The notes under the pieces are model-generated. The model was given only the letters and a program-made list of their open reading frames with translations, was not told the origin of the DNA and ran no database searches. From a virus (lineage: Duplodnaviria; Heunggongvirae; Uroviricota; Caudoviricetes): a stretch of DNA of 7,660 nucleotides. The translations under genes were made by a program, and so were the position numbers. Shown here piece by piece: positions 1-7,660 of the stretch. Where the stretch lies: the IMG/VR virus record IMGVR_UViG_2703718802_000005, one strand, 5' to 3'. Numbering within the stretch: the stretch's first letter is position 1; each line of letters begins with the position of its first letter.

Positions 1-1439
1 CTGGAGATTCAGGGGGCCAGTCTACTGCATTACGTGCTAATACAAAGCTCTTGAGAATCTTTAGAGAACAAAGAAACGCGGATGAACCAGAGCTTATTAT
101 TAAAGAATCTACATTTCCCCAACTCACTAATTCTGATCTTACAGATGCGCTTAATATTATGTGCCATTTATACAATGGTTTTGATGAAGGAAATATCAGC
201 CTGAAAACCTGGGGGGCGATGCAAGAAGTACAGACAACATCAACCTTTATCAGCCCGAGACCGGGAACCTGGAAAACAACTGAACTGGCAAAGTTTGTAG
301 AAGATGATTTATTTAATATTCTGACTGAATGTAAAGCCTGGAGTTCACCAATTCCAGCAGAAGCCCGACAGGGGTATTGCCACCAGGATCTCTCTGTTGC
401 ACACTCCTGCACCTCAGAGTTACTGGCACACCTGAATCAATACCATGAAATTGATGAATCAGCAATACTTGCCAGAGTTATTAGTATGACGATTAACGGA
501 TTCTACAAGAAAAAAAATACAGACCTTACGGAATGGCTATCCCCTTTTAAAGAGGAACATAAAATATTCAGGGATTGTCCGGAGCAAAATACCGGGGATG
601 TAATCAGACTGAAAGAGCAACTGTTGAAAACAGGACGTACAGAATTCGTGAATAATTTGTGTCAAGTCGCCAACTGGTATGAAATTAAGTCAATATACGA
701 TGAATACGTCCGTCTTTATGCCAATGAAATCATTAGTTGGTTCAACAAAACCATGGAGTATTTTAAACCAACAGATTTTATCCGATATACATGGAAATTC
801 GCAACAGTTACTCCGGATAAAGATACAGAAACTGGGCATACAACTGCATGGGAAAAGGATTATTGCCAGATAACCATACAACGTGATGAACTTCTGAGGT
901 TGATTCACACTAATACCCTTCAGGATGCAGTAATTTATCTTTGTCATTGTCTGCAGGAGAAATACAAGAAATCATCCCAGAATGAGACAGAGTTTCCAGG
1001 AATAAAACCTCCGGCATCAGAGAGTGAAATTAATATAACAGATAATTTTGAATTTCATTCTCTTATGGAGCTCAGTAAAGATAATGAGAAGCGGCTGGAA
1101 ACATTTCAAAAATGGTATGAAAAAAATAAAGTTTTGTTAGAAAGTCATAAACAAAAACGAACAGAGAAGATTGACGTTGCCGTACGACTTGTAGGGCTGA
1201 AAGCCTATGATCTGCATGAAGGGATTCCGGATAGGCCAAAACGAAAAGTTAAAGATGGCATAAATGAAGACATCAAAGCCGATACCAGTTTACGCCTGTC
1301 AAAGACAAATATAAGTGATACGTCGCTAAACCGTTATCGCCGCACTGTTAAGGAGATTATCAATAACGAAATCGACGTATTCCTGTTGGAACAGAAGAAA
1401 AAAATAAAAGATTTCCCTACAGTGAAGATAGAGATGTGA
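1..1439 (+). CDS. Hypothetical protein, C-terminal part (462+ codons); probably 5'-truncated by the window edge
   Basis: Track ORF 51..1439. The same frame (codon phase from nt 3) has no stop back to nt 1, and the first start-like codon at 51 is TTG with no Shine-Dalgarno, so the gene most likely begins upstream of the window. AT-rich (roughly 35-40% GC by eye) with a Lys/Glu/Asn-rich product; no catalytic motif recognised. Stop TGA at 1437-1439 is followed by an intrinsic terminator. Confidence 0.6.
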   Translation, partial: GDSGGQSTALRANTKLLRIFREQRNADEPELIIKESTFPQLTNSDLTDALNIMCHLYNGFDEGNISLKTWGAMQEVQTTSTFISPRPGTWKTTELAKFVEDDLFNILTECKAWSSPIPAEARQGYCHQDLSVAHSCTSELLAHLNQYHEIDESAILARVISMTINGFYKKKNTDLTEWLSPFKEEHKIFRDCPEQNTGDVIRLKEQLLKTGRTEFVNNLCQVANWYEIKSIYDEYVRLYANEIISWFNKTMEYFKPTDFIRYTWKFATVTPDKDTETGHTTAWEKDYCQITIQRDELLRLIHTNTLQDAVIYLCHCLQEKYKKSSQNETEFPGIKPPASESEINITDNFEFHSLMELSKDNEKRLETFQKWYEKNKVLLESHKQKRTEKIDVAVRLVGLKAYDLHEGIPDRPKRKVKDGINEDIKADTSLRLSKTNISDTSLNRYRRTVKEIINNEIDVFLLEQKKKIKDFPTVKIEM

Positions 1440-2159
1440 TTCGACCTTTATGGGGAAAATGCCTGACCGGACAGTAACTCCCTGAGGGGATAACAGCCCG
1501 GTTATCCCCTTTTCGTTATGCCTCGGTATACCGGAGTTCCAGGGACACGAGACAATCGGCAAATTATGCGGCTTTTCCATTAACAGATTCGGCCACAAGA
1601 ACAACACCATGTTTGTTTCGATCAGGATGTTCACTCCAGATTTCTGATTCAGGGATACTTCCCCATCATAGCAGATCCGATCACCATCAAACGGATAATA
1701 CCGTGCGGAATTTGTATCTAAGATAAACACCTTAAGATTCGTTGAACGACGCGCTATATGCTGCCAGAGGGCTTTACCTCCTTCATATTGCTCGTTATCA
1801 CTTAATAGTATAACGCCTGCTTTTGTGGCTATTGTTTCATAAACAAACGTAGCAAGGCCAACATCACGTACAGCGCCATCGACAACAATCCCTTCAATCT
1901 GAGCAACGTCCTGTTCTTCCCAGAATTTCCGGGCAAACACCCCTTCAAGCTGTGAACGACGCTGAAGCTCCAGAGTGGCAACAACCTTATGGCGAATATC
2001 ACCATCAATAACAGAAGGTGCAGCTTCGATTACCGCAGCGAACGGAGTCTTTGGATCCCAGATGATCTGGTAAAGCACGCCCTGAATAGTTACTCCATCC
2101 AGTATCGAAAAACGGCGGGCTACAGTAGCAGGGGAGTAAGACATTGGAATGACAGCCAT
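1326..2159 (-). CDS. Hypothetical protein (277 codons as encoded); C-terminal ~40-75 codons doubtful
   Basis: Track ORF; ATG at 2157-2159 with only a weak upstream AGG. Body is moderate-GC. The 3' end overlaps the plus-strand ORF by 114 nt and reads through its terminator hairpin, translating to a low-complexity Phe/Leu-rich tail (EIFYFFLLFQQEY), which looks like non-native coding. An R-x-x-G-x-A motif (RDVGLA) could hint at a GNAT-like fold; this is a weak guess. Confidence 0.45.
   Translation of the reverse strand: MAVIPMSYSPATVARRFSILDGVTIQGVLYQIIWDPKTPFAAVIEAAPSVIDGDIRHKVVATLELQRRSQLEGVFARKFWEEQDVAQIEGIVVDGAVRDVGLATFVYETIATKAGVILLSDNEQYEGGKALWQHIARRSTNLKVFILDTNSARYYPFDGDRICYDGEVSLNQKSGVNILIETNMVLFLWPNLLMEKPHNLPIVSCPWNSGIPRHNEKGITGLLSPQGVTVRSGIFPIKVESHLYLHCREIFYFFLLFQQEYVDFVIDNLLNSAAITV
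1486..1517 (+). terminator. Rho-independent terminator downstream of the 1..1439 ORF
   Basis: Perfect 9-bp stem GGGGATAAC (1486-1494) / GTTATCCCC (1501-1509) with 6-nt loop AGCCCG, followed by TTTTCGTT. On the minus strand the same hairpin is not followed by a T-run, so it is unidirectional. Confidence 0.8.
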
Positions 2160-2686
2160 TTTATGGCCTAAAATTTGAAAACATTAGTATCAATACTGAC
2201 CTCATCAGTCTGAGCATATATTGATAAAGTTTTTATGTTTACACTCAATAAATACCTTGCCAAACAACTAATATCGATGTCTACATTGCCATTCGACATG
2301 CTTACAATTTTTGTCAACAAGAAAGTGAATTTATATCAACGGTAAGAAGTAAACACGAGGACACCAAAACTAAATGTACACACTTTTGTGCTTTGTGTCC
2401 CCTGTGTGTACCCAAATGACAAACTGCAAGGAAATCTAGGCACACACTTATCTAACTTATTGATTTAAATGGTGCGATAATAGGAACAATACACATAGGC
2501 GATAAGCTTTGTTTTTGTTGCCTTTTTTATTGTTCATTTTTTATAGATACCCCCAAAAGTACCCCCATATCTTTTTCCGCCCCTGAAATTTGGTTGTTAT
2601 TCATACAGCATATCAGGCGGTAACGCTCTCCCTTTAACCCACTTATTGTATGATAGTGCTATCCCACAATAAGGAATCAGCCAGCC

Positions 2687-3046
2687 ATGAGAATGACCAG
2701 CCGTAAAAAAGAGATACTCAGTTATTTTGAGCCGGATAACCTAGAATGGGTGACAGGTGAGATTGGTGCGCCGCCGTTCGATGTGTCGGGCGTGGCCTAC
2801 CTGCTTCATGGCATGGTGTCGTTCGATAAGCGCCACCAGCTCGAATCAACCCGGCGCACACTGGAAAGCATGGTTGCTGGTGGACTGCTTGAGCGGGTGA
2901 CAGTGTATGAATCGCGTCAGGTACGGCGCGGCGGTGAGACTAACGCAACGGTCGTGCGCTACGGTTTACCCGGTCACTGCGCTGTTATGCGCGATACTGG
3001 CGGCGCTGATAACGCAATATCAGGCGAATACATGCGGGTCAGTTAA
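2687..3046 (+). CDS. Hypothetical small protein (119 aa), possible winged-helix DNA-binding protein
   Basis: Track ORF; ATG 2687 preceded by AAGGA about 12 nt upstream. Clearly more GC-rich than its flanks by eye. Segment TRRTLESMVAGGLLERVTVYE resembles a recognition helix plus wing (pattern-based guess). Stop TAA at 3044-3046 overlaps the convergent gene by 8 nt. Confidence 0.45.
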   Translation: MRMTSRKKEILSYFEPDNLEWVTGEIGAPPFDVSGVAYLLHGMVSFDKRHQLESTRRTLESMVAGGLLERVTVYESRQVRRGGETNATVVRYGLPGHCAVMRDTGGADNAISGEYMRVS

Positions 3047-3581
3047 GAGCCTGCAATCTGTCGTTAATGTTGTTCAGGTCGTAAACCCGGCGTTCAATAT
3101 CCAGCATCAGGAAATCGTGGATCTCGGCCTGTTCAGGATTATCAGACTCTCTGGCCTGTAAGAGCAATTCATTGTAACCATGCAAACCACCCGAATTTTC
3201 CGCCGGGGTAGTGCCCTTCCCGCGCAAACAGCTAACAGGCTGGATACTGGTATCATGTGTTTGCTTCTCCAGCACAACAAGGCAATCCCACCAGTCGCCA
3301 AAGTCATACGTGTAAACCAGCTTGTCACCCTCATTCTGGAGCGCCGCCCATAGTGGCGTGATTGCCGCGTTACCCATGCTTTCATCCTCACCCCATACGC
3401 GATACTCGCTACCTGGATCACCTTTACGCCCTTTCTCGAACATATACAGGTGTTCGTCATTCCAGCCAAAAGCTAACTGGATCACGGCATGAAGTTTACT
3501 AAAGGGGATTTGCTCTGGAACCAGCACACGCCGCCATATTGGTGGTTTGCTGTCTCGGATGGTTATCTTTATCTGGTACAT
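3039..3581 (-). CDS. pRiA4b ORF-3-like family protein (PF07929-like), 180 aa
   Basis: Track ORF; ATG at 3579-3581. N-terminal IKITIRDSKPPIWRRVLVP and central YTYDFGDWWD match the IWRR / YDFGDxW signature I recall for the plasmid pRiA4b ORF-3-like family. No strong Shine-Dalgarno; lies 43 bp downstream of the toxin-candidate gene on the same strand. Confidence 0.75.
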   Translation of the reverse strand: MYQIKITIRDSKPPIWRRVLVPEQIPFSKLHAVIQLAFGWNDEHLYMFEKGRKGDPGSEYRVWGEDESMGNAAITPLWAALQNEGDKLVYTYDFGDWWDCLVVLEKQTHDTSIQPVSCLRGKGTTPAENSGGLHGYNELLLQARESDNPEQAEIHDFLMLDIERRVYDLNNINDRLQALN

Positions 3582-3624
3582 GCGTCGTGAACCAATAGTG
3601 TACGTTTAGGTGGGTATTTTTCTG

Positions 3625-4059
3625 CTACTGACCAGGATAGAGCTGATGTGCCGGGTCAAGCCAGACAATATGGAATACATTACCGATGAAAAATCCATGT
3701 ATGCGACCATATTCATTGCGCGATATGGCAAATTGATAAGGTGTATAACTCTGAAACTGTTCATTCAAATGCTGAAATCCCTTAGGTTCAGATGTAGTTT
3801 GCCAATCAATCGGATGTGACTTCAACGAACCACCGCGATCGGTGGTGAACTCTCGTTCAGTCATAGTGGAAAGGTCTTTGAGGCGGTCTAACACCTTGCA
3901 AAAATAAACAGGATTCTGAGCGCTGAAAGTAAATTTCTCATGCGCCGCATCGATATACCGAAAAGAAAAGTTGATGGTCGTTATGCCTGAACCTGTTCCC
4001 CCAGGCACTATTTTTGTTTGCGAGGGTGCAATCTTCGACGCCCTGATTCTTTTCGCCAT
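3625..4059 (-). CDS. Toxin-candidate partner of the Panacea-domain antitoxin-like gene; 144 aa, fold not recognised
   Basis: Track ORF; ATG at 4057-4059 lies 2 nt after the TAA stop (4062-4064) of the upstream same-strand gene, a translationally coupled antitoxin-then-toxin layout. No family recognised by eye; notable C-terminal segment GRIHGFFIGNVFHIVWLDPAHQLY and N-terminal Gly-rich PGGTGSG. Confidence 0.6.
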   Translation of the reverse strand: MAKRIRASKIAPSQTKIVPGGTGSGITTINFSFRYIDAAHEKFTFSAQNPVYFCKVLDRLKDLSTMTEREFTTDRGGSLKSHPIDWQTTSEPKGFQHLNEQFQSYTPYQFAISRNEYGRIHGFFIGNVFHIVWLDPAHQLYPGQ

Positions 4060-4061
4060 AT

Positions 4062-4517
4062 TTAGGAAGCCATCGAACGATAAAACTCAGCCGTTACACT
4101 TTTATCAATAACATTCTTGCACGGCGCATCTGATGGAACCCCTTCACGGGCCTCCAGCCACGGCTTTTCTTGGTGCGTCATCTGCTCCAGCTCATAAGCT
4201 GTATAACCGCCAAATACCTCATAGATTTCCTTTAGATGCTTTGACACATTCGCAGGTAACTCAGGGCAGGCAATCTCTTCGTCTATTGAGCGCCATTTGT
4301 AATCTGCAAATCTGGTATACAAATCTCTGGCTACAGGGCCATGTACCCATGCTTCAAACTTGTCAGCAACCAGTTCTTCGCCATCATTCAGCGCCATGAA
4401 CCAAGCATCAGCATAGAACACCATTTTTTGCAGTTTCAGCGGCGTCATAACATCCCCATGCTCTTGAGCAAAGCAAAGCAGGTAATCCGCTACGCTGTTA
4501 AGGGTTGTAACTGCCAT
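4062..4517 (-). CDS. Panacea (DUF4065) domain protein, PanA/SocA-type antitoxin-like, 151 aa
   Basis: Track ORF 4062..4748 in frame; start placed at ATG 4515-4517 because AGGAG sits 8 nt upstream, whereas the ORF-opening ATG at 4748 has no ribosome-binding site. Product contains TPLKLQKMVFYADAWFMAL and FEAWVHGPVARDLYTRF, matching the conserved core I recall for Pfam PF13274 (DUF4065/Panacea; GepA-like 'phage-associated protein'). Confidence 0.8.
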   Translation of the reverse strand: MAVTTLNSVADYLLCFAQEHGDVMTPLKLQKMVFYADAWFMALNDGEELVADKFEAWVHGPVARDLYTRFADYKWRSIDEEIACPELPANVSKHLKEIYEVFGGYTAYELEQMTHQEKPWLEAREGVPSDAPCKNVIDKSVTAEFYRSMAS

Positions 4518-4838
4518 TATCCAATCTCCTGCCGTATGTTTTCGTCTATAACTGTCCACTACCGTTAATAATCGCATATAACCACGGGTATTGCCCATCG
4601 TAAAATGCCATTTAAAGATTCTGCGTGATGGCTCACCATCCACCGCGCAAGATACCCGGTGCGTTTGGCTGATAATCCGCAATTTGGTTGAAACCGTCCT
4701 GGAAACCTCAAGTTTGGAAACCAGCGACTTGCATCGTAGCTTTGCCATTCGGCGGTCATAGTTACTGCTATATCCCTTTATTGGCGAGACCTGCGAGAGG
4801 TTTTGTTGTTCGAATATATAAAGGTGAATAAAGGTAAT

Positions 4839-5024
4839 CTACCTGCGCGGCGCAGGCTTCTTCCACTGGTAGGCGGGTGATCGCATCATTTCGCGAAATT
4901 TGTCACGCCGGGCTATATTGGCATTAACTGAGCGTTCTATCTCCCGTTGATCTGCCGGGGTTAGCTGGTGGCCTTCGTGCTCCAGTTTGGCGGTGGTCAA
5001 TAAAGCTATTTCGCGTGGTGTCAT
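4839..5024 (-). CDS. Small hypothetical protein (61 aa), basic C-terminus
   Basis: Track ORF; GAGGG about 8 nt upstream of the ATG; same strand as the downstream antitoxin/toxin cassette. No family recognised. My manual count of the start codon here differs by 1 nt from the track; track coordinates used. Confidence 0.35.
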   Translation of the reverse strand: MTPREIALLTTAKLEHEGHQLTPADQREIERSVNANIARRDKFREMMRSPAYQWKKPAPRR

Positions 5025-5250
5025 ACGTCATACCCTCTGGAAGGATGAAACACGCCCGGATTAAATTTCATTTTTCGCGGGTATAAAAAAACGATGGGGC
5101 GGGCAGTCCCGGATAGTCAGGGCTGTAGAGATTTGACTACCCCCTCCCCACTGGATTCAGGTTACTGCTATTCCGTTAAGCGCTGCTTACGGGGATAGCT
5201 GCGTTGTGATTTTGACCATTCAGGTCGCCGCTATTTCCTCACCGATTGGG

Positions 5251-5280
5251 TGCTACGCGCGCGCGTACTTGTCCCGAAAT
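5251..5280. repeat. Copy 1 of dispersed ~25-bp repeat with palindromic alternating-CG core
   Basis: TGCTACGCGCGCGCGTACTTGTCCCGAAAT; core TACGCGCGCGCGTA is a perfect palindrome. Same motif recurs at 6643-6670 and 6931-6956. Confidence 0.85.
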
Positions 5281-5321
5281 ACCAGAAACCGCCAGCCAGA
5301 GGATGATTTCCCTCTGGTGGT

Positions 5322-5603
5322 CTACCTTTGCCTCTTGCCGCCATTTAACCGGAAGGCGTTACCGTTCGGTTGCGCTATCCCCATGCGGTGTTGCGTTTCG
5401 GTAACAGCTTTATGCAGGTCGCCAAATTCCTCAACCTTCACGGGCGGGCGCTTCACGTTCTCCAGACACGTTTCACGGCGGCGCTTTATCCATTCCCGAT
5501 CATCGTCCTCGCTGCATAACAGCATGACTTCCATCCATCGTGCGGCAGCTCTCCGGTATAGCCCTTTTGACTCCAGCTCTTCAGCTTTCCTGTCCCTTAT
5601 CAT
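5322..5603 (-). CDS. PerC-family transcriptional activator-like protein (93 aa)
   Basis: Track ORF; GAGG 5 nt upstream of ATG (5601-5603). Segment AEELESKGLYRRAAARWMEVM matches the conserved core I recall for PerC/Pch-family regulators (Pfam PF06069) found on enterobacterial mobile elements. The opposite-strand ORF 5206..5625 is judged spurious. Confidence 0.7.
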   Translation of the reverse strand: MIRDRKAEELESKGLYRRAAARWMEVMLLCSEDDDREWIKRRRETCLENVKRPPVKVEEFGDLHKAVTETQHRMGIAQPNGNAFRLNGGKRQR

Positions 5604-5640
5604 TTCTGCCTCTCAGATTATATAGATAAGCAAAAAGGTG

Positions 5641-5667
5641 TTGGTTCAGTTGGTTCAGTTGGTTCAA
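5641..5667. repeat. Three tandem 9-bp direct repeats TTGGTTCAG (third copy TTGGTTCAA); iteron/operator-like
   Basis: Directly visible at 5641-5649, 5650-5658 and 5659-5667, in the divergent intergenic region between the PerC-like gene (minus) and the RHH-like gene (plus). Confidence 0.85.
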
Positions 5668-5709
5668 TTTGTAAAGATCGTTGTTTTTATTATGTTTTTT
5701 CTAAAATAT

Positions 5710-5760
5710 TGAACCAACATCAACTCATTTTGAACCAACACAGCCCAGCTCTGAACCAAC
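5710..5760. repeat. Three copies of TGAACCAAC (reverse complement of the tandem repeat core) at exact 21-bp spacing
   Basis: Copies at 5710-5718, 5731-5739 and 5752-5760, i.e. two helical turns apart. Separated from the tandem array by an AT-rich spacer (5668-5708, includes GTTTTTATTATGTTTTTT). Confidence 0.85.
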
Positions 5761-5814
5761 AACACAGCGATAGCTTTGTGATTGGCCCGTTATTTTCTGG
5801 CTGATATTTGAGCG

Positions 5815-5845
5815 TATAACAGTGTTATACAGTGATATACTGTAT
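5815..5845. promoter_or_regulatory. Operator-like dyad upstream of the RHH-like gene
   Basis: Perfect inverted repeat ATACAGT-GATAT-ACTGTAT (5827-5845), preceded by a direct half-site repeat TATAACAGTG (5815-5824). Ends 18 nt upstream of the ATG at 5863, where an autoregulatory operator would sit. Confidence 0.4.
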
Positions 5846-5862
5846 GGATATTACTCACTGAT

Positions 5863-6318
5863 ATGGTCTTTGCAATGAGCAAATCTAATCTGGTCGCGTT
5901 CCGCATCCCATCTGAATTGCAGGATGAGTTTAATCGGTCTGTTCTCGCTTCTGGAGGGGATAAAACCTCCTGGCTTGTTGATGCGATTCGCATGAAGCTG
6001 GGACAGCCGGAAAAGTCTATTGATTCACGAATGCTTGGGCTGGTGGAGCGCATGGAAAAAGCTGCTGCGTCGCTTATTGCCGGAAAGCCGAACATCCCAC
6101 CAAAGCCATATAACGAAACGGCAGTTATAAAGATCATTGCCGATACCATCCGACAGGGATTTGATAATGGGCGTGTGATAGCTGAACGGATCAATGAAGC
6201 AGGCTATCAAACAAAAGCTGGTAAAGCGTGGGATAAAGATATTTACAGCGCGTGGAAGCGTCAGGGAAGCAATGCTGAAAAGTTAAAAGCGGTGATTGAT
6301 TGTAAGGTCAGCGTATAA
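5863..6318 (+). CDS. Hypothetical protein with N-terminal ribbon-helix-helix-like DNA-binding region (151 aa)
   Basis: Track ORF. N-terminus VAFRIPSELQDEFNRSV...KTSWLVDAIRMKL has the strand-helix-helix pattern of CopG/Arc-type RHH domains (pattern-based). Weak Shine-Dalgarno, so start is uncertain between ATG 5863 and ATG 5875. Opposite-strand ORFs 5790..6194 and 6025..6210 are judged spurious. Confidence 0.55.
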   Translation: MVFAMSKSNLVAFRIPSELQDEFNRSVLASGGDKTSWLVDAIRMKLGQPEKSIDSRMLGLVERMEKAAASLIAGKPNIPPKPYNETAVIKIIADTIRQGFDNGRVIAERINEAGYQTKAGKAWDKDIYSAWKRQGSNAEKLKAVIDCKVSV

Positions 6319-6397
6319 ACATGAGTGCCCATTGGAAAGCTGCTTGGGCCAATACCTTTATACACCAGCAGGTGGTGACGATAGGTGAGGATCAGGA

Positions 6398-6619
6398 ATG
6401 AAAGGCAGAACGCCACACATTGAACATCAAGCCAACCACTTCTCGGATGTTCGCAATGAGATGATTGCCATTCGCGGTGATATGCACGGCTTGGAGCGTC
6501 GAATTATTGATAAGATTGATGAAAATAGAGATAAGGCCAGTGAAAATCAAAAGTGGATCATCGGCCTGTTGATTTTATCAATTCTTATCCCGCTACTTAT
6601 CGCATTGGTCACAAAATGA
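6398..6619 (+). CDS. Small tail-anchored membrane protein (73 aa), XhlA/holin-like architecture
   Basis: Track ORF; GAGGA about 6 nt upstream of the ATG. Charged N-terminal region followed by a single C-terminal hydrophobic helix WIIGLLILSILIPLLIALV. Assignment is by architecture only, not sequence family. Confidence 0.55.
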   Translation: MKGRTPHIEHQANHFSDVRNEMIAIRGDMHGLERRIIDKIDENRDKASENQKWIIGLLILSILIPLLIALVTK

Positions 6620-6642
6620 ATATCCAATGTGTATGCTGTCGA

Positions 6643-6670
6643 TGCTACGCGCGCGTACTTGTCGCAAAAT
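6643..6670. repeat. Copy 2 of dispersed ~25-bp repeat
   Basis: TGCTACGCGCGCGTACTTGTCGCAAAAT; palindromic core TACGCGCGCGTA. Begins 24 nt after the stop of the 6398..6619 gene. Confidence 0.85.
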
Positions 6671-6901
6671 ATCAGGCAAAGGCCAGATTCAGAACGTCGT
6701 GATAACCACCAGCACAACATGAGATGTCATGTAACGCGATTTATCACGTCAGATACATGTGATTGGTGTACCCGCATAAAACATTGTCATAGCGCGTCCT
6801 GTGCGCATATACGCCGATAATCAACACATCACCACCACTCTGTCTCATGTAGAGAACACTTTTATGGTATCCCCCGCCATCGTGTGCGTACTGGTCGGAC
6901 G

Positions 6902-6925
6902 CAGTTGCAAAAAATTTTGCAACTG
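6902..6925. repeat. Perfect 11-bp inverted repeat CAGTTGCAAAA-AA-TTTTGCAACTG
   Basis: Directly visible; no T-run follows on either strand, so more likely a protein-binding dyad than a terminator. Immediately precedes repeat copy 3. Confidence 0.8.
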
Positions 6926-6930
6926 ATACC

Positions 6931-6956
6931 CCTCGCGCGCGTACTTGTCTCGAAAT
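6931..6956. repeat. Copy 3 of dispersed ~25-bp repeat
   Basis: CCTCGCGCGCGTACTTGTCTCGAAAT. Degenerate relatives GTGCGTACTGGTC (about 6884-6896) and GCGCGTACTGTAAC (about 7017-7030) lie nearby. Confidence 0.8.
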
Positions 6957-7142
6957 TGGTGTTTTGCTGTGGCAGTGATATCAGAAAAATCTTCCTGTTT
7001 CACATAAAGCGGATATGCGCGTACTGTAACGACCCCATCAACTGGGAGCGGATTTGAAATCCCGACCCAAGCTATGTACCAAATGCCATGTCTTGGATAT
7101 ATGATGATTGCCATTCTAAACAAAGCTAAAGGGAGGGTTGGT

Positions 7143-7493
7143 GTGAATGCTCAGGCTGTCATCATGGTTTTACTTGGTCTGATTGTCGCAAAACTATATC
7201 CAGACTGGTGGAAAGGGGTATTAGCAACTGTCGCCATCTATTTGCTTTTATCCGTCGTTAAGCGATCGTTCGTTAAGACCGTAAATCAAGCAAAACGTTT
7301 CTCATTTAAGAATTTAATAAACTATATTACTGGGCTTATTTTTTGCCTTTCAATTTTGATCGCTTCAGCTTTTTTGCCCGTATCAATAGCTAATTTTTTT
7401 GGCGCACCATATGAGGTAGGTTATCTATTCTCTGTTTTTTGTCTTGTTCTTTCCCTTCTTTACCTATGGATGAGAGCAAAGAACAAAAATTAG
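7143..7493 (+). CDS. Hypothetical multi-pass membrane protein (about 116 aa from the preferred start)
   Basis: Track ORF 7074..7493. Preferred start is in-frame GTG at 7143, preceded by GGAGG (7132-7136) with a 6-nt spacer; alternatives are ATG 7074 (no SD) and ATG 7164. AT-rich; product has about four hydrophobic helices (AVIMVLLGLIVA, VLATVAIYLLLSVV, ITGLIFCLSILIASAFL, YLFSVFCLVLSLLYLW). Stop TAG at 7491-7493. Confidence 0.5.
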   Translation: MNAQAVIMVLLGLIVAKLYPDWWKGVLATVAIYLLLSVVKRSFVKTVNQAKRFSFKNLINYITGLIFCLSILIASAFLPVSIANFFGAPYEVGYLFSVFCLVLSLLYLWMRAKNKN

Positions 7494-7660
7494 CCATCCA
7501 TGGCTAACCAGTTATTGAGATTCTTTTTGTGATGCCTGTGCGACTCTGGTGAGCGATTGTGTGACCGTACTGATCGCTCTGTCATATGCTGTGCTACCTT
7601 TTGGCGTATTTGCCAGACGTAACAAGGCATTTCGGTAAGCGTAAACTGACCGCCGTATGT

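Follow-up and report, generated by a model that had tools for sequence, protein, structure and literature searches.

The reading frame at the left edge of the window

The window, a term we use for the whole analysed stretch of 7,660 nucleotides, opens on its forward strand with a long reading frame (frame 3), which extends without a stop from base 3 to a termination codon at 1437-1439 and comprises 478 sense codons. Its longest start-to-stop ORF (51-1439) begins with the first TTG at position 51 and encodes 462 residues, in accordance with the at least 462 codons counted in an earlier sequence-only reading of this DNA. Throughout, LARGE serves as working name for this orphan gene and its product, which encompasses 543 codons when intact, and p198 for the convergent gene located 3' of it. 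The region 25-1439 has a GC content of 38.5% (GC3 35.7%) compared to 44.7% in the whole window and 29.6% of the residues of the protein encoded by the ORF are charged, which is in line with the previous description of the sequence as AT-rich and charged. Its additional description as low-complexity does not hold, as SEG masks no part of the translated ORF, with each stretch of 12 residues reaching at least 2.2 bits, and as AlphaFold predicts a folded and mostly helical protein. The same protein contains no hydrophobic segment (with a maximum of 0.8 in a 19-residue Kyte-Doolittle scan).

The open left end of the frame had been ascribed to a truncation of the gene at the edge of the window, an interpretation that is contradicted by the identity of the first bases. 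Positions 1-24 (CTGGAGATTCAGGGGGCCAGTCTA) are the exact reverse complement of TAGACTGGCCCCCTGAATCTCCAG, the 24 bases with which the annotated IS2A of E. coli K-12 MG1655 begins, and constitute the terminal 24 nucleotides of the left inverted repeat of this IS3-family element on the reverse strand, with a sequence that is identical to the terminus of IS2. The 53-nt end of IS2 is found at 20,354 sites across E. coli genomes, where it adjoins an IS3-family transposase. Since bases 1-24 belong to IS2, the open frame begins with eight 'codons' that are insertion sequence read by chance. The remainder of the element is located beyond the left edge of the window, as are its other junction and the 5-bp target duplication, and its transposase genes are oriented away from the ORF. 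The homology to intact LARGE alleles breaks at 24/25, within codon 60 (Ser) of 543. The adjacent region 25-1439 on the forward strand is 99.8% identical to the gene of E. coli RM10410 (L001:11826-13457; WP_170990348, 543 aa), with the match starting at base 21/25, and it represents a LARGE pseudogene, which starts at base 2 of codon 60 and is cut short by a stop that results from a frameshift. In a megablast search of 5,426 complete E. coli genomes, 690 contain a match, all alignments beginning at base 21-25 and none at base 1. Neither these complete genomes nor the representative genomes of GTDB contain the exact junction between IS2 and LARGE, which is thus private to the source lineage. In the way the left terminus exactly abuts LARGE, the site resembles other IS2 insertion pseudogenes of E. 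coli and shows the typical gene disruption by an IS3-family element, with nothing unusual about it.

A second lesion is found close to the 3' end of the frame. As revealed in the DNA alignment with the alleles of strains RM10410 and F8, a run of eight adenines in intact alleles is shortened to seven (1398-1404, forward strand), and this 1-bp deletion leads to a -1 frameshift near codon 519, which produces the stop at 1437-1439. The frameshift replaces the conserved tail ...NKRFPYSEDRDVIRPLWGKCLTGQ by IKDFPTVKIEM, and the lost C-terminus contains Pro 534 and Trp 536 of a P-L-W motif, both of which are invariant in the family. Alignment with intact alleles places the out-of-frame rest of the ancestral coding sequence at 1440-1477 (forward strand), with the ancestral TAA stop at 1475-1477. 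Among 308 complete E. coli genomes, just two share the shortened run, which carries the PGAP label 'frameshifted' in strain HB37. Insertions of IS5, IS1 or IS256 are found in LARGE of other strains. The view that LARGE would be intact and functional at this site and simply run off the edge of the window draws on the frame being open to base 3, but we consider it virtually untenable, barring a chimeric source assembly at this point, in light of the IS2 terminus at bases 1-24, the frameshift that removes the conserved tail and the absence of a sequence that would be continuous across the junction in any (0/5,426) of the complete E. coli genomes.

The LARGE remnant is followed by a hairpin resembling an intrinsic terminator (1484-1511, forward strand), which was detected in a terminator scan and which consists of an 11-bp stem with a 6-nt loop followed by TTTTCGTT. 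The presence of a GC-rich hairpin and a U tract just past the stop, at a distance of 7 nt from the ancestral TAA, agrees with a rho-independent terminator, and the predicted folding energy of -20.6 kcal/mol (z = -3.8 compared to shuffled sequences) bears out its previous designation as strong. In strain F8 the stem is kept and the loop is different. A search of the window against Rfam gave no match. The hairpin separates LARGE from the convergent p198 (1564-2159, reverse strand), which is a pseudogene carrying a 1-bp deletion near 1659, where its tblastn match splits between two frames. The DNA alignment shows that this deletion is shared with RM10410, where the gene is annotated as 'frameshifted', whereas the intact protein contains 198 amino acids in F8 and in a further locus (L005). 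It belongs to the PHROG family phrog_7522 (E = 1e-105), which has no assigned function. A 277-aa ORF at 1326-2159 was rejected as a gene and is an artefact of the p198 frameshift.

The region 25-1439 very probably corresponds to 88% of an accessory gene, counted from its 3' end, which forms part of an Escherichia island at the tRNA-Thr gene thrW and whose copy in the source strain is dead. The insertion of IS2 at codon 60 severs an invariant N-terminal helix from LARGE and the deletion in the A8 run strips the protein of its invariant C-terminal P-L-W tail, the convergent partner p198 is frameshifted and the island has lost its integrase. The window holds an ordinary decaying pseudogene module that was hit three times. 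This state, with IS2 at codon 60, the frameshift in LARGE and the one in p198, had escaped the sequence-only reading.

Genomic setting of the island

In the E. coli strains RM10410 and HB37, a gene encoding a YfjI/DUF3987 protein and an HTH gene of the AlpA type point away from LARGE, from which they are separated by about 700 bp, whereas the convergent p198 on its other side is followed, after about 310 bp, by thrW-proA-proB. In other E. coli strains, E. albertii and Salmonella, the module adjoins yqjH/yqjI/aer and a 438-aa P4-type integrase is encoded directly after p198. Intact LARGE homologues are thus surrounded by the hallmarks of an integrative island, namely a P4-type integrase (Arm-DNA-bind_3 + Phage_integrase), alpA, DUF3987 and a fixed site. 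Of the genes of such a CP4-57-like island, the window itself keeps just LARGE and p198. Its identity to RM10410 extends up to the partial 3' end of a tRNA-Thr at about 2470-2485, where it gives way to a different block. The sequence past about 2485 is 99.9% identical across many genomes. In strain F8 it is part of a second integrative element, which encodes an integrase of its own as well as a TOPRIM-DUF927 primase and ejection proteins. The location at the partial tRNA-Thr end next to this second element therefore places the LARGE copy of the window in the remnant of an older island, which lacks an integrase and lost its place at thrW to the second element. The presence of three inactivating lesions fits this view.

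Among complete E. coli genomes, about 13% contain LARGE, in each case beside one particular P4-type integrase or a remnant of it, and this integrase subtype in turn nearly never occurs without p198 and LARGE (701 compared to 690 genomes). The suggestion that the ORF would be horizontally acquired cargo is thus well founded, given its residence in an island with P4-type integrase, AlpA and DUF3987 at thrW or near yqjH and the occurrence of relatives on conjugative plasmids and in an ICE.

The LARGE family and its exchangeable neighbours

The family is small. A word-indexed search of 5.8 billion proteins retrieved 8 clusters and an exhaustive HMM search of 1.84 billion representatives 43 relatives, about 15 of which are full-length with 490-548 amino acids. 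Most originate from Enterobacterales, where they reside on islands, plasmids and ICEs, and a few from other Gammaproteobacteria. The additional relatives found by profile search, from E. coli, Klebsiella, Serratia, Dickeya and Vibrio, are all annotated as 'hypothetical protein' and contain neither Pfam domains nor fusions. Among the representatives of 185,579 species, LARGE was detected just in E. albertii and Siccibacter colletis, and none of 50,697 phage genomes contains it. It is found on 18 plasmids, 8 of which are conjugative, and its matches in IMG/VR are located at the edges of predicted proviruses.

The intact protein has no match in Pfam, NCBIfam, PHROGs or PADLOC, and a Pfam search with all 21 members and their C-terminal segments gave only scattered noise. 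Similarly, none of the defence HMMs of PADLOC-DB 2.0 matches the 543-aa LARGE or p198 at E ≤ 0.1. Sequence-profile searches against the PDB, covering the whole protein, its mid domain and its C-terminal domain, returned a short Walker-A'-like match to Etk/Wzc (E 0.013) and a match to connectase (E 0.7), both of which were rejected as chance because the LARGE family does not contain a P-loop. A structure predicted by AlphaFold from an alignment of 21 sequences reached a pLDDT of 82.5 and a pTM of 0.83, compared to a pLDDT of 50 with 7 sequences. This confident model suggests a multi-domain protein that contains some 20 helices as well as a small beta-hairpin (316-344) and that has a flexible tail. 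Foldseek did not find a significant match for it in the PDB or among the viral structures of BFVD. Across the 21 sequences, whose identity drops to 19%, 18 positions are invariant, including Glu 30, Gln 31, Arg 40, Asp 113, Arg 174, Tyr 177, His 179, Trp 316, Asp 455, Ser 490, Arg 496, Pro 534 and Trp 536, and a basic C-terminal domain is present in all members. A literature search for the LARGE accessions, yfjH and glycine-zipper defence proteins returned nothing specific. The protein hence retains its status as an orphan without assignable motif in Pfam, NCBIfam, PHROG, PADLOC and the PDB and without fold relative.

In each of the more than 30 loci examined, LARGE is divergent from an upstream partner whose identity depends on the clade, and three classes can be distinguished. 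Class I, with 57-100% identity to E. coli LARGE, carries alpA-DUF3987 upstream and p198 and int downstream. In class II, with about 42% identity, which comprises plasmids of Klebsiella, Citrobacter and Raoultella, an ICE where the gene is located beside a Pycsar system, and Siccibacter, the partner is a very acidic protein of about 150 amino acids, which is about 65-85% identical between loci. The distant class III (20-37% identity) contains a Gly/Ala-rich glycine-zipper membrane protein of 99-108 amino acids, which is 68-86% identical between loci and which is followed in three loci by a protein of 88-91 amino acids. For the acidic, the glycine-zipper and the 88-91-aa proteins no family assignment was found, and tblastn searches for the three in the Escherichia loci gave no match. 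The glycine-zipper family is wider than LARGE and comprises 148 clusters. In a single look-up, a homologue from Xanthomonas was found to adjoin Shedu and a reverse transcriptase at a site without LARGE, which is suggestive.

The intergenic regions of classes II and III, with a length of 330-375 bp, are homologous beside the start codon of the partner, whereas the coding sequences of the partners are unrelated. This implies that the conserved unit consists of LARGE and its control region and that the output gene has been exchanged. An inverted repeat, aATCAAGtTAa-N12-TTAnCTTGAT, is found in eight of nine aligned class II/III loci. Its exact core, ATCAAG-N20-CTTGAT, occurs six times in 557 kb of fetched loci, with three of the six within about 6.6 kb of class II/III intergenic DNA. 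The proximal arm overlaps with a -35-like TTGATA of the predicted partner promoter in two loci (L016 and L037), and the repeat could consist of back-to-back -35 elements or be bound by a different factor. In loci L019 and L018 it is degenerate or missing, and the surrounding DNA has a GC content of 27-31%, where chance palindromes are common. A stem in the 5'-UTR of class II/III loci has arms that differ by clade and stay complementary (CGAGG/CCTCG compared to CAGAGC/GCTCTG). The class I intergenic region of Escherichia shows no similarity to the control region of classes II and III and the inverted repeat was not found in it.

Between Escherichia alleles, the dN/dS of LARGE amounts to 0.2-0.5, compared to 0.03-0.08 for int, 0.05-0.18 for p198 and 0.11-0.2 for alpA. 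Intact LARGE is thus a real coding gene under purifying selection, with a constraint that is much weaker than for int, p198 or alpA. Its dS of 0.3-1.2 follows that of alpA, unlike the near-identical int/p198 block. LARGE and the intergenic region upstream of it have a mosaic structure and diverge far more strongly than int/p198, and the allele of F8 changes donor in the middle of the gene.

Function of intact LARGE

In light of the constant divergent arrangement and of an operator-like repeat that is inherited together with the gene, we consider it most likely, albeit at somewhat below even odds, that intact LARGE responds to a signal and regulates the divergent promoter by binding to DNA. Besides the constant divergence, this assignment draws on the control region shared between classes II and III, on the dS that LARGE has in common with alpA, on the mosaic divergence of LARGE and its intergenic region, on the joint travel of int, p198 and LARGE and on the precedent of the PIME1 elements described below. 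Several observations are less favourable, among them the AT-rich setting and incomplete conservation of the inverted repeat and the lack of similarity between the intergenic region of class I and that of classes II and III. Neither the Pfam scans of each member nor the PDB profile search detected an HTH or other DNA-binding profile in the C-terminal domain, a size of 540 residues would be unusually large for a regulator and would count against it, and the dN/dS of 0.4-0.5, the independent IS insertions and the Pycsar and RM neighbours fit a protein involved in conflict or defence equally well. For the combined interpretation, in which the copy of the window is a dead island gene and its intact counterpart a regulator, we estimate a probability of about 45%, and it provides our best explanation of the whole.

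The sequence-only reading had noted that large AT-rich genes of this kind sometimes act in defence. In such a scenario, intact LARGE would be an anti-phage protein of the abortive-infection type, working alone or with a small partner, for example as sensor of a glycine-zipper effector, which travels as cargo inserted between int and alpA and whose copy in the window has been inactivated. The accessory position beside a P4-type island integrase would suit this role, as would the fact that the same slot in CP4-57 holds the unrelated yfjH, and the neighbourhoods point loosely in the same direction, with a distant homologue adjoining a Pycsar system in an ICE, a plasmid-borne copy with an RM system and a DUF4145 gene in its vicinity, and the family of the glycine-zipper partner also found beside Shedu and a reverse transcriptase in Xanthomonas. 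The patchy, mobile and rare distribution, the elevated dN/dS and mosaic alleles and the repeated disruption by insertion sequences in other strains are in line with it as well. However, LARGE, p198 and the partners do not match any PADLOC model at E ≤ 0.1, no enzymatic or effector domain was detected in LARGE, and the gene was not found in any of the 50,697 phage genomes. Moreover, the partner is always divergent and never co-transcribed and it changes by clade while the control region stays, and the integrase subtype hardly ever occurs without LARGE, unlike expected for a freely swapped cargo slot. The earlier suggestion has loose neighbourhood evidence in its favour, but no defence model supports it and the synteny fits a regulator better than a defence protein, and we regard such a role as rather doubtful.

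A more specific variant, in which LARGE would be an RNase toxin of the HEPN type, appears very improbable. HEPN domains are common among the Abi proteins of mobile elements, and the protein does contain a motif with the spacing of the catalytic Rx4-6H signature, Arg 174-x4-His 179 (RQGYCH), whose R174-QGYC-H179 is invariant in the 21 sequences and located in a helical region. The motif is thus found, but a HEPN fold or profile is not: scans of each member against Pfam gave no HEPN family at E ≤ 1, and the PDB profile search with residues 140-236 returned just a short Etk/Wzc match ('DADLRRGYSH'), which is probably due to chance. Additionally, the residue following Arg 174 is Gln, Lys, Leu or Met, instead of the usual Asn, Asp or His, and in the predicted model Arg 174 appears to close a short helix rather than to open the motif helix.

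If LARGE acts as a regulator, it would be soluble and located in the cytoplasm, with a large N-terminal body that is acidic and helical and predicted to adopt a novel fold, and with a basic C-terminal domain that may resemble a helix-turn-helix. Mobile elements would have wired different outputs to LARGE and its upstream control region, which would be an alpA-DUF3987 operon for excision and replication in Escherichia islands, the acidic protein of about 150 residues on plasmids and ICEs, and the glycine-zipper membrane protein in distant relatives. In the islands of Escherichia, position and role would make LARGE comparable to a master regulator and the counterpart of alpA, and its fast mosaic evolution may reflect changing input signals. 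In a speculative and on balance unlikely extension of the regulator model, LARGE and its control region of about 340 bp would form a portable sensor-switch cassette with a hitherto unseen fold that can be plugged before varied outputs. It would thereby define a new class of regulators carried by mobile elements, which phage or a competing element might trigger, with the same sensor driving either island induction or an effector of the abortive-infection type.

The family is in this respect of larger interest than the copy found in the window. It consists of proteins of about 540 residues without relatives in sequence or fold, which are restricted to mobile elements and nevertheless present in about 13% of the complete genomes of E. 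coli, and it combines a predicted novel fold with an unusual synteny, where the same sensor would be retained while its output is swapped. To our knowledge, the signals inducing CP4-57-like islands are not known. If LARGE switches the alpA-dependent induction of the island, or a toxic membrane protein elsewhere, it would fill the missing regulatory part of these islands, and it would, if true, provide a new sensor module for studying the conflict between mobile elements and phages.

The proposed role finds its closest parallels in the regulators of other integrative elements. [quoted passage not shown] LARGE resembles Stl in its location between the two, in its divergent orientation, in being more variable than the integrase and in its proposed function as induction switch. 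It differs in that it shows no similarity in sequence or fold, is about twice the size of Stl and is devoid of a detectable HTH profile, and in the opposite orientation of the integrase in LARGE islands, in the occurrence of relatives outside islands with other partners and in that neither helper phage nor inducer is known for LARGE islands. In the integrative mobilisable PIME1 elements, which carry int and alpA, the regulatory region contains a regulator of the LuxR family that is likewise divergent from alpA and is essential for excision (bioRxiv 10.64898/2026.01.12.698999). In contrast to the PIME1 regulator, LARGE does not match the LuxR/GerE families in Pfam, and its island contains DUF3987/YfjJ genes instead of the repA/trb genes of PIME1. 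The third parallel concerns YfjH of the K-12 cryptic prophage CP4-57 (intA-yfjH-alpA-yfjI-yfjJ), which occupies the same slot in the same orientation, is divergent from alpA and shares the DUF3987/YfjJ backbone. As a homologue of LARGE, YfjH was rejected on the basis of an hhalign probability of 0.07%; it contains 318 residues and its start is located 44 bp from the start of alpA, compared to about 700 bp for LARGE.

Junction of two elements at thrW

The sequence TGGTG-CGATAATAGGA at window position ~2470-2485, within a junction region spanning 2160-2490, is an att-type repeat that copies part of the 3' end of the tRNA-Thr gene thrW. From ~2470-2485 onward the window diverges from E. coli RM10410, to which it is identical before that point, and this position is the boundary between two integrative elements residing in tandem at thrW.

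The block at window 2453-7634, which is found with 99.9% identity in many E. coli genomes and bears no relation to the remnant of the orphan gene LARGE, is the cargo end of the second, satellite- or prophage-like element. In strain F8, the matching block runs on into genes for injection/ejection proteins, a TOPRIM-DUF927 primase, ash, antA/B and an integrase. Among its genes in the window, four on the minus strand encode a plasmid pRiA4b ORF-3 family protein (3039-3581, Pfam E = 6e-42), a PerC-family transcriptional activator (5322-5603, Pfam E = 1e-30), and a 144-aa protein together with a Panacea/SocA-domain protein (Pfam E = 2.7e-17), the latter two being located 3 nt apart (3625-4059 and 4062-4748). 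The 144-aa protein shows weak matches to the MAG6450 family and to phrog_8366, and both proteins probably form a PanA-type antitoxin/toxin pair.

Disruption of LARGE and repeats upstream of the gene

In the E. coli genomes H6, H7 and H111, LARGE is split by independent IS5, IS1 and IS256 insertions, which hints at a frequent inactivation of the gene across strains. In RM10410, the ~690-bp AT-rich intergenic region between alpA and intact LARGE, which corresponds to sequence upstream of the window's IS2 end, contains three perfect direct repeats of AAATAAAAACA with a spacing of exactly 20 bp (L001:11322-11372). These repeats may be binding sites; the triple repeat was not seen in the other Escherichia-type (class I) alleles examined.

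Divergent partners of LARGE homologues

Class II LARGE homologues have, as their constant partner in divergent orientation, an extremely acidic, D/E-rich protein of ~150 aa (L004:3356-3805, L014:7158-7619, L037:6173-6622), which is without family assignment and whose putative role could possibly be DNA-mimic-like or that of an inhibitor. Such pairs are carried by IncFII plasmids, by an ICE and by the chromosome of Siccibacter.

Distant LARGE homologues are paired divergently with a Gly/Ala-rich glycine-zipper membrane protein of ~105 aa (L016:7304-7627, L017:7344-7667, L018:4891-5217, L019:1261-1560, L021:2274-2588), a conserved family of 148 clusters with no match in Pfam or NCBIfam. In Xanthomonas (L022), the glycine-zipper protein occurs without LARGE on a mobilisable element, where it lies next to a gene of the Shedu type (SduA_C domain) and to a reverse transcriptase.
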